Part shown: one piece after another, positions 17,914 through 23,849 of the stretch
Position numbering within the stretch: position 1 is the stretch's first letter
Layout of the letters: each line of letters starts with the position of its first letter
Source of the DNA: Candidatus Babeliales bacterium
Lineage (GTDB): Bacteria > Babelota > Babeliae > Babelales > JACPOV01
DNA length: 64,000 nt
NCBI GenBank assembly: GCA_050250855.1
Contig: JBFWNW010000003.1
Span: 64,001-128,000, forward strand
Reading direction: 5' to 3'
Position numbers and translations under genes: made by a program
The notes under the pieces: model-generated
Seen by the model: only the letters and a program-made list of their open reading frames with translations
Database searches by the model: none
What the model was told of the DNA's origin: nothing

Positions 17914-18834
17914 ATGAAACATAGCAAAATCTATTTTATTATTTTTTTAAGTACTATAATTCCACCTCTAAAAGCAGCTGAAAATAAACCACTCATGCAT
18001 GCTTGTAAAAATAATGATACCACGAAGCTGCAAGAACTTCTTGGCAATGGGCACACCTGGGATCAAGAGCTCGATACAAAAGCTATTAATGAACGAAATC
18101 TTTATAAAAAAAATGTTAATGCTGATAATTATTTACAAGCCCTTGACCAAGAACAATATTATTTTGGCAATCCAGAAAACGTTCTTAATCGCTGCGCTGA
18201 TGACTCTCCTTTGCATTGGGCTATTGTGCACAAAAAATATAATCTCGCTCGCCTTTTAACATTATATGGCAAATTACCAAGTTTTAACCCCTGCAACGAT
18301 CTTCTTCTTTCAAAAAGCCCTTTGCGGCTTGTCGCTCTACAAAGAATCATTACAAAACAAGAAACGCTTGATTTTGAAAAATTTCTCTTGGCCCATGAAG
18401 TAACAACGCCGCAACCATTCCTAAAAACAAATGATGAGATTAATCTTTCAAAAGATCGCATAAAAACGTTTTTACTCTGCTGTAATAGATATAAAAATAC
18501 TTTCCTAGAAATTCCGCGTGATATTATTTTTCATATACTTTCTTTTATGCCTGAAGAAGTTTTTTCTGTTTCTATGCTTGCAACCGTAGTAAAATATTGC
18601 AGCATGCTACCAGAAAGCTATGTAAAAAGTTTACACAAAACAGCACTTCTTGATGCTTTTAAAAAACTAGATAATCTTGAATTGAAAAAAAAGTATAAAC
18701 AATCATGTAAAAATATTCTTATTGAGCATGGAATGCAACACCCTTCAATACATTATGTACAAAAATCTTATAATGCAGAAACTCTAGAAGAATTTTTAGA
18801 CAAACAACTAGAAGCTCTTTTTTATCTTTTTTAA
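17914..18834 (+). CDS. Secreted protein with degenerate ankyrin repeats and F-box-like motif
   Basis: Signal peptide (LKA-AE); SPLHWAI; IPRDIIFHILSFMP. Confidence 0.65.
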   Translation: MKHSKIYFIIFLSTIIPPLKAAENKPLMHACKNNDTTKLQELLGNGHTWDQELDTKAINERNLYKKNVNADNYLQALDQEQYYFGNPENVLNRCADDSPLHWAIVHKKYNLARLLTLYGKLPSFNPCNDLLLSKSPLRLVALQRIITKQETLDFEKFLLAHEVTTPQPFLKTNDEINLSKDRIKTFLLCCNRYKNTFLEIPRDIIFHILSFMPEEVFSVSMLATVVKYCSMLPESYVKSLHKTALLDAFKKLDNLELKKKYKQSCKNILIEHGMQHPSIHYVQKSYNAETLEEFLDKQLEALFYLF

Positions 18835-19040
18835 CAAAAAAGTTATAAAAAATTAATTGCCATCCATCGCATTTTACGTTACATTTACCCTGTCTTATAA
18901 AAAAAGAATTCTTTCAACAGTAATGAACATTATTGCCGAAAGGGGGCATAAGTAAAGCGTAGCATTCAAAAACTATTTTCTTGTCTCTTTTTCATCGTTT
19001 TTATAAAAAACATACTCATCTCTGGTTAAAGGGAGTTTTT

Positions 19041-20561
19041 ATGAACCAATTTTTTAAAGCACTTCTTGGCTGTTTACTTATTGCAGGAACAGCTCAAGCC
19101 TCTCTGCCGGTTTTTGGCAAAACATTTTATCATCAACGCTCGCAAGGAGCTAATTTAGCACGCTGGCTTTCTGGGCAGGCACATCACGTACATTTGTGTG
19201 ATACTGATTGCGTTAACGGTAGCTGGTTTATAGCACCATATTATGGTCAAACATATAACGATAAAGAACTCGGTAGCTGGTTCTTCTTTAATGGCACCAA
19301 CACCATGCGCTTTGGGCCACAGGGTGTACAGGGCGTAGATGTTTTTGCGCGTAACTTCTTCTTGAATGATGACTTTGATGGTGCCGTTACCGCAAACCCT
19401 CGCGTCAAAAATTTCGTTGTTGACATCAACTTCTTCCTTGGTCTTGATGAATGGGTACGCGGTCTTTACTTCCGTATCGATGTACCGGTCAACTGGACTA
19501 GCTGGGATATGAAGTTAACACAAACAACAACAACACCTGGTACAATTATCGCAGCAAACACCTTAGGTAATGATATAGATCGCTCTTCTCCTTTGAACAA
19601 TATTATTGCCGCATGGAAAGGCGATACCTTAGCGCCAACAGATTTTCCTGATTTAAAACAAAAAATGCGTTTTGCCCGTATTGACGGCAAACAAACAAAA
19701 GCAAGCGTTGCAGATATCACCTTCATGCTTGGTTATGACATTATTTGTAATGAATGCTCGCACTGGGGTGTTTACGTTAACGTTGTTGCTCCTACTGGCA
19801 CACGCCCTGATGGCCAATTTGTCTTTGAACCTGTTGTTGGTAATGGCCGCTACGTTGAAATGGGACCTGGTACATCTGGTCATTTTGAACTATGGAATAA
19901 TGGCTGTGATCAATCATTTGGCATCTTCTTCCAGGGTTATGTTAACCATATGTTCCGCTCAAAGCAAAAACGTACGTTTGATTTAAAGCAAAATGGTATT
20001 GGTAGCCGTTACCTCTTGATTAAACGTTTTGACCCAAGCAGTGGCGATTATGCTAATGAGGTTCTTTTTGGACCAAACGTTTTAACGCGTAACTGCCGTG
20101 TAAAAAATGATATTCAAGGTGAAGGCGCCTTCATGTTTGATTATCAAAACTGCGGCTTTACCTTTGATGTTGGCTACGATATCTGGGGACGCACTAAAGA
20201 TAAAATAACTATTACGGAAACTATTCCTGCAAATACGTTTGGTGTACAGGGTACAACTTTAACGGGAAATCCTGTAGTAATAGGCAGCACGGATATGACC
20301 CAAAGCCAAGCTACTATTGCTAATCCAAATAATGGTCCTATTGATAAAGTATTTATCACTACAGAGGATCTTAATATTGAATCAGCAGAACATCCAGGCG
20401 CTGTTTCTCATAAGATCTTTACCCATATTGCTTATACATGGGAAAATTGTGATTACTTGCCTTTCATTGGCATTGGTGGTGAAGTTGAGTTTTCTGGCAG
20501 AGAAAACCGCGCTTTTGACCAATGGGGAATCTGGATTAAAGGTGGATTTACCTTCTTTTAA
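19041..20561 (+). CDS. Secreted Cys-containing putative outer-membrane beta-barrel protein
   Basis: GGGAG RBS before ATG 19041; signal peptide AQA-S; alternating aromatic strands; ends KGGFTFF. Confidence 0.7.
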   Translation: MNQFFKALLGCLLIAGTAQASLPVFGKTFYHQRSQGANLARWLSGQAHHVHLCDTDCVNGSWFIAPYYGQTYNDKELGSWFFFNGTNTMRFGPQGVQGVDVFARNFFLNDDFDGAVTANPRVKNFVVDINFFLGLDEWVRGLYFRIDVPVNWTSWDMKLTQTTTTPGTIIAANTLGNDIDRSSPLNNIIAAWKGDTLAPTDFPDLKQKMRFARIDGKQTKASVADITFMLGYDIICNECSHWGVYVNVVAPTGTRPDGQFVFEPVVGNGRYVEMGPGTSGHFELWNNGCDQSFGIFFQGYVNHMFRSKQKRTFDLKQNGIGSRYLLIKRFDPSSGDYANEVLFGPNVLTRNCRVKNDIQGEGAFMFDYQNCGFTFDVGYDIWGRTKDKITITETIPANTFGVQGTTLTGNPVVIGSTDMTQSQATIANPNNGPIDKVFITTEDLNIESAEHPGAVSHKIFTHIAYTWENCDYLPFIGIGGEVEFSGRENRAFDQWGIWIKGGFTFF

Positions 20562-20588
20562 TAGCATTTTCTAATTTCTCTCCTTTTG

Positions 20589-20614
20589 AGCCCGGTTTTA
20601 AAACCGGGCTTTTC
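20589..20614 (+). terminator. Rho-independent terminator
   Basis: AGCCCGGTTT-TA-AAACCGGGCT followed by TTT. Confidence 0.75.
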
Positions 20615-20774
20615 ATTTTACAGGTTCAAAATCATTCAATATTTTCAATATAAAATTAATTTGAAAAAACTATTGATTTTTTATTTCTATTTGTAAGAAA
20701 CTATAGATAAGAAGGTATGAAAATACCCTCTAGATAGGAATAGTGTATTATTAACCCTAAAAAAGGAGAGTCTC

Positions 20775-21098
20775 ATGAAGAAACTCATGTTAGCTCTAGC
20801 TATTTTCGCTGCTGCAGCATCTGCAGAAGCTGGTTACCGTAATTGCTACACACGTGGCACATGCAAAACATCTTGTGTTGAGCGTGTTTGTGAACCTAAA
20901 TGTTCACCTTGCAAGGTTGACAGAATTGTTGAACAACCTTGCCCTGAAGCTCCATGCTGTGTACGTTATGTTAAGGTTGAAGAACCTGCAATCATAACTA
21001 AGCACATCAGCTACTCTTGGGCATGTCCATCTGGATGTTCTGAAGAGAACAAAGCTGCTGGTATGATGAAAGCTGGCGAGCACGGTAATTTCAACTAA
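20775..21098 (+). CDS. Small secreted cysteine-rich protein
   Basis: AAGGAGAG RBS; signal peptide AEA-G; 11 Cys in an 88-aa mature part. Confidence 0.85.
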   Translation: MKKLMLALAIFAAAASAEAGYRNCYTRGTCKTSCVERVCEPKCSPCKVDRIVEQPCPEAPCCVRYVKVEEPAIITKHISYSWACPSGCSEENKAAGMMKAGEHGNFN

Positions 21099-21125: not shown

Positions 21126-21159
21126 GCCTCCTGAGCTAAACTCAGGAGGCCCTTTTTTT
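21126..21159 (+). terminator. Rho-independent terminator
   Basis: GCCTCCTGAG-CTAAA-CTCAGGAGGC then CC and T7. Confidence 0.85.
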
Positions 21160-21214: not shown

Positions 21215-21242
21215 TTGACAAACTGCAATTTTAGTTTAAACT
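21215..21242 (+). promoter_or_regulatory. Putative sigma70 promoter of the peptidase cluster
   Basis: TTGACA-N16-TAAACT. Confidence 0.55.
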
Positions 21243-21264: not shown

Positions 21265-21288
21265 GTATACCTGTATACCTGTATACCT
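21265..21288 (+). repeat. Tandem repeat (GTATACCT)x3
   Basis: Three exact 8-bp copies between the promoter and the RBS. Confidence 0.9.
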
Positions 21289-21318
21289 GAAATGACTATT
21301 TAAAATGGAGGAAAGACT

Positions 21319-22080
21319 ATGAATACAACTAAAAAATACTATGGTATAGCCTTAATAGCCACGGTGGCTCTGGGTGCTCTAATAAGTTTCAAATATCCCT
21401 TTTTTAACAAAAATACCCCAAAAACACATAATTTAGGGGCTACACAAAGCTTTTTTAAAGAAAAAATTGCTCAGGAAGAGAAAGAGCTTATAAATCGCCT
21501 AAAAGCCGAACTTGGCGTTGATTTAAGCTTAACAACACCGTCTCAAGACCATTGGCTAGGAAGCCCTACCAAGGCTCAAGGGACAGAAGATATTTACCAA
21601 CTCGTTTTTGATGTAGCACAAAAATACAATTTTAATGCTGATAAGCTTTCTATTGTCTTGCAACATAGTGACCAGGGGTCACCGGCAAGTACAAATAGTG
21701 CAGGCCAGCTTCTTATTGAAATGAACATCTTCCCGACACTACCCGTAAGCGTACAGCGCTTTATTATAGCGCATGAGCTCCATCATATTTTGCATAATGA
21801 TTTTGAGGAAACAAGAGCACTTAATAAAACATTAAATCAAAAGCATGTGTCAGGAAAAGCTCAAGCTCTTCTTGACGAATATGGTCGCTTTCAAGAAAAA
21901 CGTGCTGACGTTGCCGCTGCACTTCGTGGCGCTGAATGGGCACAAGGTTATCTAGATTTTGCTCATGAAGGTATTAAACGCTGTGCTCAGGATCCTGGCA
22001 TTAGTCACCCGACGTATAAAGAGCGTGCCGCACTAGCACAAACTATTATTGACCATATGCACGGTCTGCAAACAGTATAA
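21319..22080 (+). CDS. Membrane-anchored M48-like zinc metallopeptidase
   Basis: N-terminal TM; HELHH, EKRAD, SHP..KER motifs. Confidence 0.8.
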   Translation: MNTTKKYYGIALIATVALGALISFKYPFFNKNTPKTHNLGATQSFFKEKIAQEEKELINRLKAELGVDLSLTTPSQDHWLGSPTKAQGTEDIYQLVFDVAQKYNFNADKLSIVLQHSDQGSPASTNSAGQLLIEMNIFPTLPVSVQRFIIAHELHHILHNDFEETRALNKTLNQKHVSGKAQALLDEYGRFQEKRADVAAALRGAEWAQGYLDFAHEGIKRCAQDPGISHPTYKERAALAQTIIDHMHGLQTV

Positions 22081-22097
22081 AACATATGGAGGTTATT

Positions 22098-22865
22098 ATG
22101 AATAAAAAATTACTTATAACTATAGCAACTATTACCGCATTACTCACTGTTTTCTGGTACTTTAAAAAACCAGGTGCTCGCTTGAGTATTCAACAAGCTC
22201 AGACGGCTACACAACCAATTTGTGCAAACCTTAACAAGCTTGAAGAAGAAGTATGGCAAGCTCTTTCTTCTGAAAAGAAGATAACAAAAGAGCAGGTTGA
22301 AGAAATGCGCCAAAAAAAGTATAGCGAATATAAAAAAGATCATACAAGGCCAGATAATGGGTTAACGCTATCTTCAGCGACCATTAGTTTTGTTCATAAT
22401 ATTATGGATGAATTCGGTGTAGATAAAAAAGAAATAATCCTTATTGCACAACCTTCAATGGTAGGTGCAGCACAGGTAATTGATGACTTTCACATGGAAG
22501 TTAATGAAAAAAATCTTGCTAAATTTTCACCTGAAGCTCAAGCGTTTATTATAGGCCACGAATTACAACATATTATCTTTAAAGATCACTCAACAGCCTA
22601 TTTTATACGTACCTTGCTACCAGAGCCAGAAAAATATGAGCCTCTGTTTGCGCGTGAACATCCTATGATGCAGTTTTATCGCTTCAGAGAAGAACGCGCC
22701 GATGTTATGGCTGCAACACGCAATGATATATGGGCACACAACTATGCCATATATGCACAAGAAAACCTTGCACTACGTGGTGATGCTGCCGTTGACTGGC
22801 ACGTTAGAAGTTCAAAACGTGTAGTATTGGCACAAGAAATTAATAATGCTCTGCAAACAGCATAA
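22098..22865 (+). CDS. Membrane-anchored M48-like zinc metallopeptidase
   Basis: HELQH, EERAD; GGAGG RBS before ATG 22098. Confidence 0.8.
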   Translation: MNKKLLITIATITALLTVFWYFKKPGARLSIQQAQTATQPICANLNKLEEEVWQALSSEKKITKEQVEEMRQKKYSEYKKDHTRPDNGLTLSSATISFVHNIMDEFGVDKKEIILIAQPSMVGAAQVIDDFHMEVNEKNLAKFSPEAQAFIIGHELQHIIFKDHSTAYFIRTLLPEPEKYEPLFAREHPMMQFYRFREERADVMAATRNDIWAHNYAIYAQENLALRGDAAVDWHVRSSKRVVLAQEINNALQTA

Positions 22866-22879
22866 TGGAGAAAAACAGT

Positions 22880-23080
22880 ATGAAAAAACAAATTAAACTT
22901 TTTGGTGTATTTATCCCTCTTTTTGTAGTGGCAGGAATATTACTTATACAAAGTTTTACTCATCACTTACAAAAGGTAGGAATAAAACAACAAGAACAAA
23001 AAGAACAAACAAAAGAAATAGAAACTGATAAAAAACAAAATGGAGAAAACAATGAAAACACTATTCAAAAAGAATCGTAA
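22880..23080 (+). CDS. Small single-TM protein
   Basis: GGAG RBS; basic N-terminus, TM helix, charged tail. Confidence 0.5.
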   Translation: MKKQIKLFGVFIPLFVVAGILLIQSFTHHLQKVGIKQQEQKEQTKEIETDKKQNGENNENTIQKES

Positions 23081-23849
23081 ACACTTAGCATTAGCTCTTC
23101 TTGCACTTGTTGCAACGTTTGGTGCATACCGTTTTTACCAAGGGTTAACACAACAACAAGCAATTTATGAAGCACATGGTTCAAAACTTTCTGCAAAAGA
23201 ATATTTTGGACAATTGCTTACACAAGAACTTGATTGTGTATGGAAAGCTTTTGAAAAAATAGGTATTACTAAAAAACGTTATGAAGATGCAAAAAATAAT
23301 TACCGCAACCAGTATCTTCGCTCAGATTTTCCCGGTGGTTCTATTCAAGTATCAGACCAAACAAAACAGTTTGTTAATGGTATCTTAAAAGAACTTGGCG
23401 TAGATCCAGCAACTATAACTATTACAGGATGGGATGATATTTCACCTGCGGCAGCAACTGAACATATTATTTATATTAATGAAAAAGAATTTAGTAATTA
23501 TTCATTGCCTGCACGCCGTTTTATTATCGGCCACGAGATTCAGCATATCTTGCATAAAGATAACTGGTCACGCTATTCACTTGAATTACTATGTAACAAC
23601 GAAGTAGAAAAAATGGCTGGCAAAAAAGATCATCCATTGTGCCAATACAGTCGTTTTAAAGAAAAACGTGCTGACGTTACTATGGCAACAACAAGTAAGG
23701 AATGGGCTGAAGGTTACTTAGCTTTTGCCAAAGAATGGCATAAACGCGCAGGAGATAATCCTGGTGTAACTCACCCGCTTAATAAAGATCGTGTTGCTTT
23801 AGCACAAGATATTGTTACGCATATGAAAAGATCTGTACAAAGCGCGTAA
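23052..23849 (+). CDS. Membrane-anchored M48-like zinc metallopeptidase
   Basis: HEIQH, EKRAD, THP..KDR motifs. Confidence 0.8.
   Translation: MKTLFKKNRKHLALALLALVATFGAYRFYQGLTQQQAIYEAHGSKLSAKEYFGQLLTQELDCVWKAFEKIGITKKRYEDAKNNYRNQYLRSDFPGGSIQVSDQTKQFVNGILKELGVDPATITITGWDDISPAAATEHIIYINEKEFSNYSLPARRFIIGHEIQHILHKDNWSRYSLELLCNNEVEKMAGKKDHPLCQYSRFKEKRADVTMATTSKEWAEGYLAFAKEWHKRAGDNPGVTHPLNKDRVALAQDIVTHMKRSVQSA

Follow-up and report, generated by a model that had tools for sequence, protein, structure and literature searches.

A predicted periplasmic cysteine rim in an outer-membrane barrel family of the Dependentiae, its small cysteine-dense neighbour and a possible disulfide-linked envelope

The window analysed here, a 64,000-nucleotide stretch of Candidatus Babeliales bacterium (GenBank assembly GCA_050250855.1, contig JBFWNW010000003.1, positions 64,001 to 128,000), lies within a 1.22-Mb, 95%-complete genome of the Babeliales (Dependentiae/TM6). 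It contains two neighbouring genes, one encoding an outer-membrane beta-barrel (P0001) and the other a very small, cysteine-dense exported protein (P0002), together with a paralogous barrel gene (P0003) further along (Table 1). The barrel belongs to a family, newly identified here, that is universal in the phylum and has its cysteines almost only on the predicted periplasmic rim. The Dependentiae are widespread protist parasites, mostly uncultured, which passages of the published literature describe as being without lipopolysaccharide (LPS) genes and without all four known outer-membrane tethers.

P0001 begins with a signal peptidase I-type signal peptide (…AGTAQA|SLPV) and ends in …GGFTFF, with F506 as its last translated residue, and its mature part has eight cysteines, at positions 53, 57, 236, 239, 289, 352, 371 and 470. 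A preliminary description of this DNA, made from the letters alone, had already named the signal peptide, the terminal phenylalanine and the eight mature cysteines of P0001, as well as a tiny Sec-exported protein with 11 cysteines, a strong ribosome-binding site and its own terminator, and all of these are borne out by the translations and signals. Because each gene is followed by its own terminator-like hairpin, the two genes, which are separated by a spacer of 213 bases, look like separate transcription units. The eight sequencing runs listed in a search for RNA evidence were all DNA metagenomes. A reading of P0001 as a lipoprotein was rejected because its Cys11 falls within the hydrophobic core of the signal peptide.

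Table 1. Position, strand and basis of the features described in the window
Feature	Position	Strand	Description	Basis
Shine-Dalgarno-like GGGAG	19031..19035	+	five bases ahead of the barrel ATG	read off sequence
Barrel gene, P0001	19041..20561	+	506-residue Sec-exported protein, predicted 12-stranded outer-membrane beta-barrel	translation and AlphaFold2 model
Terminator-like hairpin of barrel gene	20588..20611	+	10 pairs, 6 GC, then T-rich tail (TTCATTTTAC)	
AGGAG ribosome-binding site of small gene	20764..20768	+	six bases ahead of the ATG	read off sequence
Small gene, P0002	20775..21098	+	107-residue Sec-exported protein, 11 Cys	translation
Terminator-like hairpin of small gene	21126..21150	+	strong; 10 pairs, 7 GC, then CCTTTTTTTG (T-run)	
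Three tandem membrane-anchored HExxH (M48-like) peptidase paralogues	21319-22080, 22086-22865, 23040-23849	+	third alone passes the M48 cut-off	weak Pfam M48 / YgjP-like matches
Paralogous barrel gene, P0003	56072..57655	+	527 residues; 24% identity to P0001, E 2e-39	BLASTP

P0001 is well supported by its model as a 12-stranded outer-membrane barrel with large predicted extracellular loops, of the structural class formed by the COG4313 channel and FapF. The AlphaFold2 model, obtained with a 71-sequence alignment, has a predicted local distance difference test score (pLDDT) of 94.2 and a predicted template modelling score (pTM) of 0.90, and a beta-barrel is thus recovered by the structure prediction that the preliminary description had proposed as a check. 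A VIA-align search with the model placed 4rl8_A, the COG4313 channel Pput2725 of Pseudomonas putida, first (Z 23.8, root-mean-square deviation 2.9, 260/267 residues aligned) and 5o65_A, FapF, second (Z 23.1, deviation 2.6, 255/276 residues aligned). The next matches, at Z 15.8-18.3, were autotransporter, KdgM and NanC barrels, which we take to be 12-stranded, and the best Foldseek matches were FapF (E 1.6e-11), the COG4313 channel and FadL. P0001 resembles the COG4313 channel and FapF in its whole 12-stranded barrel, which superposes on theirs over the entire length, whereas its sequence identity to them is only 11-14% and it has about 220 extra residues in outward loops. No sequence match of P0001 to the COG4313 / Phenol_MetA_deg family was found in Pfam, in NCBIfam or in a profile search of PDB sequences with the barrel alignment, and to our knowledge a cysteine rim has not been described for the COG4313 or FapF families. 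The Sec signal, the barrel model and the terminal F506, together with two Omp85 genes in the genome, are those of a bacterial outer-membrane barrel.

By DSSP, with bulges merged and short strands within long loops omitted, strands 1-6 of P0001 span residues 59-71, 113-134, 142-165, 218-236, 240-251 and 273-286, and strands 7-12 span 291-312, 349-370, 373-391, 454-466, 472-485 and 494-505. Counted backward from the C-terminal strand, their connections alternate between short (135-141, 237-239, 287-290, 371-372 and 467-471; 2-7 residues) and longer ones (72-112, 166-217, 252-272, 313-348, 392-453 and 486-493; 8-62 residues). Outer-membrane proteins have both termini and the short turns on the periplasmic side, and the periplasmic assignment of the turns of P0001 was made from the DSSP ranges and these textbook rules. 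On this topology, seven of the eight mature cysteines belong to the N-terminal segment or to short turns, four of the five turns being occupied: C53 and C57 stand just ahead of strand 1, turn 2 holds C236 and C239, and turns 3, 4 and 5 hold C289, C371 and C470, respectively. The exception, C352, is in a strand, near its outer end.

The same placement is seen across 121 aligned members of the family (P0001, 119 listed relatives and P0003), in which the N-terminal segment and the turns, predicted to be periplasmic, hold 709 of the 904 mature cysteines and 11.9% of the residues. By region, cysteine accounts for 19.8% of turn residues (526 of 2661), 4.1% of the N-terminal segment (183 of 4428), 0.52% of strands (129 of 24921) and 0.24% of outward loops (66 of 27422), with residue 236, the last strand residue by DSSP, counted in turn 2, which shifts about 70 cysteines from strand to turn. 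Within the family, cysteine is therefore nearly excluded from strands and outward loops and concentrated in an N-terminal segment and five turns that are periplasmic by the predicted topology. Turn 1 carries a cysteine (position 140) in 42 members, so that all five turns can be occupied, and the commonest pattern, found in 19 members, has all eight rim positions filled. The rim cysteines typically precede each outward-running strand by one or two residues and occupy equivalent positions on successive hairpins, and in P0001 an aromatic residue near a strand end, as delimited by DSSP of the model, precedes three of them (W285…C289, Y368…C371 and W467…C470). The preliminary description had placed cysteines right after aromatic strand ends and suggested looking for them on periplasmic turns. 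Passages of a structural paper on Chlamydia's major outer membrane protein (MOMP) state that most membrane barrels are without any cysteine (PMC13254160).

The family to which P0001 belongs is the main, signature outer-membrane barrel family of the phylum. Its profile matches all 261 Dependentiae genomes searched, usually in several copies each and with about 1,400 barrel genes altogether, and a word-based search with P0001 returned 360 relatives at E ≤ 1e-3; among the best 120 of these 360, every named source is a hypothetical protein of Babeliales or Dependentiae. The genome studied here has six barrel paralogues, all with cysteine at some rim positions and with the fewest in the most divergent copy (C1:84272-85771). 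P0003 shares C236, C289 and C371 with P0001 in aligned columns and has an equivalent of C470 offset by one residue, in agreement with the earlier remark that cysteines recur at the same positions in the two proteins. Another Babeliales family has a head-to-tail array of four to five barrel paralogues (G120, C1:1327500-1339500; G121). At E ≤ 0.1, P0001 gave a chance FixQ match in Pfam and none in NCBIfam, no Pfam or NCBIfam model beyond chance matches was found for P0001, P0002 or P0003, and profile searches of PDB sequences with either protein family returned nothing significant (best E-values 0.11 and 0.36). In the literature found on the outer membrane, porins, cysteine and disulfides of Dependentiae, the barrel family is described in no title or abstract, nor in passages of three outer-membrane papers. 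Its recognition provides an annotation for more than 1,000 hypothetical genes for which Pfam and NCBIfam hold no model, which would be useful even if no cross-links exist.

P0002 has 11 cysteines in 88 mature residues and, at 12.9%, ranks as the most cysteine-dense among 483 signal-peptide-like open reading frames (ORFs) of the genome. Its signal ends …ASAEA|GYRNC, and the first cysteine stands five residues past the predicted cut, as it does in 20 aligned homologues; the translation shows neither a lipobox nor a membrane anchor. Behind the signal peptide, P0002 has a variable stretch in which cysteines follow one another at short intervals, mostly of three or four residues, and then a conserved core, for which the near-invariant family pattern is PCCVRYVKVEEPA..TKH.SYS.xCPxGC. 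There are 19 close homologues with 50-75% identity, eight cysteines are invariant in the 20 close sequences, and only C62 and C84 are invariant in the wider alignment. When 1.84 billion representatives were searched exhaustively with a profile, only 28 P0002-like clusters came up at E ≤ 1e-3, all of 42-136 residues and hence with no fused forms; a weak 7-Fe ferredoxin profile match in the small-protein search (E 0.41) was not significant. The structure prediction for P0002 was unusable (pLDDT 45.8), and a complex prediction with residues 22-506 of the barrel and 20-107 of the small protein scored 0.01 against a mark of 0.32, the fold of the small protein itself being uncertain, so that this score speaks neither for binding nor against it.

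The small-protein profile matches 22 of the 261 Dependentiae genomes: eight of the nine other genomes of the family to which the present genome belongs, five of five in a second family and one of two in a third, with a few weak matches elsewhere. The single miss within the same family, in a genome of the same genus, is explained by a contig end that falls within the barrel gene. Among the 12 best loci, 11 have a barrel gene directly upstream of the small gene, on the same strand and within 1.5 kb, and in the twelfth (G105) it lies about 1.5 kb upstream with three short ORFs between. The small gene also follows a barrel gene in G120, of the third family, which brings the strong-match loci to 13 including the present one; there, four tandem barrel genes are followed by a 116-residue small protein with 14 cysteines. 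By the listed coordinates, outside the context analysis, the small gene of G110 and G111, both strong matches, starts about 200-300 bases after a same-strand barrel gene. The distant homologue in G020 is not beside a barrel gene; weak small-protein matches in G022, G211, G027, G035, G233 and G014 are left out of the barrel-context counts. Because the small protein occurs in so few genomes, whereas the barrel occurs in all of them with a family-wide rim, it cannot be a general partner of the barrel family. Synteny, which the preliminary description had proposed to follow across the phylum, thus holds in part: a conserved, exported small protein is encoded after a barrel gene in three families, and its reach ends at the 22 genomes.

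The reading that we tentatively favour, and hold to be quite possible if a little short of probable, is that the rim thiols of P0001 form an intermolecular disulfide network that stabilises the outer membrane, with the small protein as a lineage adaptor. P0001 would be exported by Sec and presumably assembled by the beta-barrel assembly machinery (BAM), for which the two Omp85 genes would provide, into its 12-stranded barrel. Some rim thiols would then bond internally, C53 probably with C236, which would tie the N-terminal segment to turn 2, and others would be left unpaired and would form intermolecular disulfides on the periplasmic face, with neighbouring barrels or exported cysteine-rich proteins as their partners. 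In this way an outer membrane lacking LPS and every known tether would be stiffened or anchored by a protein network that depends on redox state. P0002, which occurs in three Babeliales families, would serve as a lineage-specific adaptor of this network, analogous to chlamydial OmcA, and the oxidation would come from extracytoplasmic thioredoxin-fold proteins and a VKOR encoded elsewhere in the genome. The barrel is likely to function as a channel as well.

The gene content of the genome provides the setting for such a network. No LpxC was found in it, and the OmpA domain gave a sub-threshold match only. Besides VKOR, it encodes two signal-peptide thioredoxin proteins, which are candidate extracytoplasmic thiol oxidoreductases: a 332-residue protein at C4:23648-24649 with two thioredoxin domains and two WCxxC motifs in a layout like that of protein disulfide isomerase (Pfam Thioredoxin E 9e-42), and a 127-residue, single-domain protein at C2:56577-56960 (E 3e-30). 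A 60-residue ORF at C1:317485-317667 has a lipobox-like signal (…LTLAGC) with four more cysteines close behind; its translation makes it a candidate small cysteine-rich lipoprotein, in that respect nearer OmcA than P0002. A tandem array at C1:141961-156693 encodes large exported proteins of 789-1522 residues with 27-40 cysteines each, one of which, when scanned, showed right-handed beta-helix and NosD-like repeats; large cysteine-rich partners in the envelope or at the surface might be found among them. Passages of published genome studies describe Chromulinavorax as devoid of LPS genes and equipped with a complete mur pathway (PMC6561590), the Babeliales as lacking most LPS genes (PMC4776705), and ten Dependentiae genomes as having no homologue of the Lpp, Pal, OmpA or OmpM tethers (preprint, 10.1101/2021.05.31.446380).

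The closest parallel in layout is found in Chlamydia. In passages of its structural description, solved chlamydial MOMP has 10 strands and eight cysteines, of which five (C26/29/33, C179/181) are on the periplasmic side, within an N-terminal loop and a tight turn, and are judged to bond intermolecularly (PMC13254160). Both barrels thus have about eight cysteines, mostly periplasmic, in a flexible N-terminal segment and one or more tight turns; the chlamydial outer membrane complex of MOMP, OmcA and OmcB also includes a small, exported, cysteine-dense second protein; and parasitism inside host cells, together with a free infectious particle, is common to both organisms. They differ in that P0001 has 12 strands, by DSSP and by its best matches, and MOMP 10; in that P0002, which is small, exported and more than 10% cysteine like OmcA, has a signal peptidase I site and no lipobox, whereas OmcA is a lipoprotein; and in that the present system, known from sequence and models, has no identified OmcB-like partner and stands beside peptidoglycan genes. 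Chlam_OMP (PF01308) gave no match for P0001, P0003 or the genome, with control genomes that did not include Chlamydia; the OmcA family Chlam_OMP3 (PF03503) gave none for P0002 at E ≤ 0.1 or in the genome, nor was Chlam_OMP6 matched, and the genome searches for all three had no positive control. A further comparison is with the major outer membrane protein in Legionella pneumophila, an amoeba-infecting bacterium, in which 28- and 31-kDa subunits form disulfide-linked porin oligomers and one subunit is bound to peptidoglycan. Its barrel class differs from that of P0001, the 10-stranded Legionella porin 9nh1 reaching only Z 10.3 against P0001, and a sequence link, checked by Pfam scan only, gave no match. 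PomS and PomT of Protochlamydia amoebophila are described as porins specific to their lineage that take the place of MOMP in this amoeba symbiont (PMC3561449); no relationship of these to P0001 is claimed.

The cysteine patterns of the 121 aligned barrels bear on whether the rim thiols bond between molecules or within one. C53 and C236 are both present in 65 members, both absent in 50 and discordant in 6, a far tighter association than that of any other pair. Raw Fisher tests of such co-occurrence are inflated by shared ancestry, and on a FastTree phylogeny the two cysteines change together in 3-4 of seven independent contrasts and never oppositely (median p 0.125), seven contrasts being too few to reach significance. 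This near-perfect co-occurrence and joint change suggest that C53 and C236 probably form a bond within one molecule that ties the N-terminal segment to turn 2. Such a bond would fit an alternative in which the rim cysteines are internal staples only, pinning the N-terminal segment, as a plug, and neighbouring turns intramolecularly and so stabilising the barrel in an LPS-free membrane or setting its gating, with the small protein unrelated and its position a matter of local gene order. The COG4313 and FapF folds have an N-terminal plug in the lumen, the CxxxC (53, 57) and CxxC (236, 239) pairs could give two local bonds, and the barrels encoded beside the small gene have no cysteine common to all, the adjacent barrel in G120 keeping three listed sites only.

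Exclusively internal bonding is nevertheless rather unlikely in view of the remaining thiols. Of the 121 barrels, 62 have an odd and 59 an even number of mature cysteines, so that in half of them at least one thiol is left without an internal partner, and the small proteins divide similarly (24 odd, 20 even among 44 sequences, with a crude signal-peptide cut); to judge from this count parity, unpaired thiols are common in both families. By general barrel geometry, equivalent positions on successive hairpins would be roughly 10-12 Å apart, too far for a disulfide, and successive rim cysteines would therefore be unable to pair. The other rim cysteines also behave more independently on the tree than 53 and 236, with 26 changes in turn 4, 22 in turn 1 and 12 in turn 5, and those of turns 4 and 1 are gained and lost largely on their own. 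Moreover, the small gene keeps its place next to a barrel gene in three families, even where barrel identity has fallen to about 38-44%.

A number of observations weigh against an intermolecular network built on the rim of P0001. Some have been given above, namely the probable C53-C236 bond, the absence of a cysteine common to the barrels beside the small gene, the rarity of the small gene next to a family-wide rim, the counting of residue 236 as a turn residue and the assignment of sidedness by DSSP ranges and textbook rules. In addition, the genome keeps four Mur ligases, which imply a peptidoglycan wall and a lesser need for a protein shell than in Chlamydia, and the DsbA-type Pfam families PF13462 and PF01323 have no match in this 95%-complete genome. 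The amount of cysteine in P0001 is also ordinary, at 8 of 485 residues or 1.65% against a mean of 1.44% for the predicted proteome. The preliminary description had called the barrel cysteine-rich, a compositional claim that is rejected here; its cysteines are unusual in placement rather than in number. That description had also proposed a convergent, chlamydia-like cross-linked coat. Here the parallel in layout with MOMP holds up, and the proposal is narrowed by a gene pair that is not general, by a C53-C236 bond that looks intramolecular, by the lack of a common cysteine and by the Mur ligases, because of which a coat replacing peptidoglycan, as in Chlamydia elementary bodies, is not implied. 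On this analysis a chlamydia-like cross-linked envelope is plausible, more sharply drawn than before and unproven.

It is improbable that the barrel is instead a FapF-like secretion pore and the small protein its cargo, which would form a disulfide-bonded surface layer or act on the host. One of the two best structural matches of P0001 is FapF, an exporter of amyloid subunits whose genes share its operon; the small gene follows the barrel gene in all 13 strong-match loci (in G105 with the three intervening ORFs), and P0002 has no lipobox or membrane anchor. The nearest neighbours of P0002 in the ESM Atlas, planctomycete hypothetical proteins at 0.87-0.89 and a YTV-domain cluster at 0.77, agree with this idea as a lead only, since all are below the 0.9 bar. 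However, the barrel is universal and multi-copy while its supposed cargo is rare, each of the two genes has a terminator of its own, strand 1 of P0001 is preceded by only about 37 residues whereas FapF needs a long N-terminal coiled coil, and export of a cargo would leave the periplasmic-rim cysteines unexplained. An equally doubtful proposal is that a ring of thiols at the mouth of the barrel, on the periplasmic side, gates the channel by binding metal or sensing redox state, with the small protein as a metallothionein-like periplasmic chaperone or buffer. It would suit the closely spaced cysteines of the mature small-protein N-terminus and their varying number among members. However, none of the His/Cys motifs of known metal sites is present, no metal-binding family of Pfam was matched at E ≤ 0.1, charged and beta-forming residues abound in the conserved core in place of pure cysteine clusters, and no metal transporter lies in the conserved neighbourhood.

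If the rim thiols of P0001 do form a network between molecules, intracellular bacteria that have a free infectious stage would have evolved disulfide-bonded outer-membrane shells on two or more occasions, and from proteins unrelated to each other. A broader version, which we regard as unlikely and offer as speculation, extends this to the whole phylum: a redox-switchable disulfide lattice based on the rim cysteines of the universal barrels would hold the LPS-free, tether-free outer membrane of all Dependentiae, to which some families would add an OmcA-like adaptor. The chlamydial principle would then have been invented independently, with unrelated proteins and with peptidoglycan retained. Such a lattice would answer how the Dependentiae anchor their outer membrane.

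The surroundings of the gene pair are partly conserved. The M48-like peptidase genes that follow the small gene in the window have counterparts in other genomes, with one to five such genes after the small gene in G105, G108, G101, G104 and G109 and none in G120, and acpP- and fabD-like genes lie further downstream wherever the examined stretch reaches. The M48 protease BepA assists outer-membrane-protein assembly in Escherichia coli, because of which the M48-like genes might conceivably be connected with quality control of the barrel. Just upstream of the first M48-like gene, the octamer TATACCTG stands in three head-to-tail copies (21266-21289), which are themselves preceded by a TTGACA/TAAACT promoter-like site (21215-21242). 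On the other side of the pair, directly upstream of the barrel gene, an ankyrin-repeat protein with a signal peptide is encoded at 17914-18834, typical of the exported ankyrin repertoire of the phylum.

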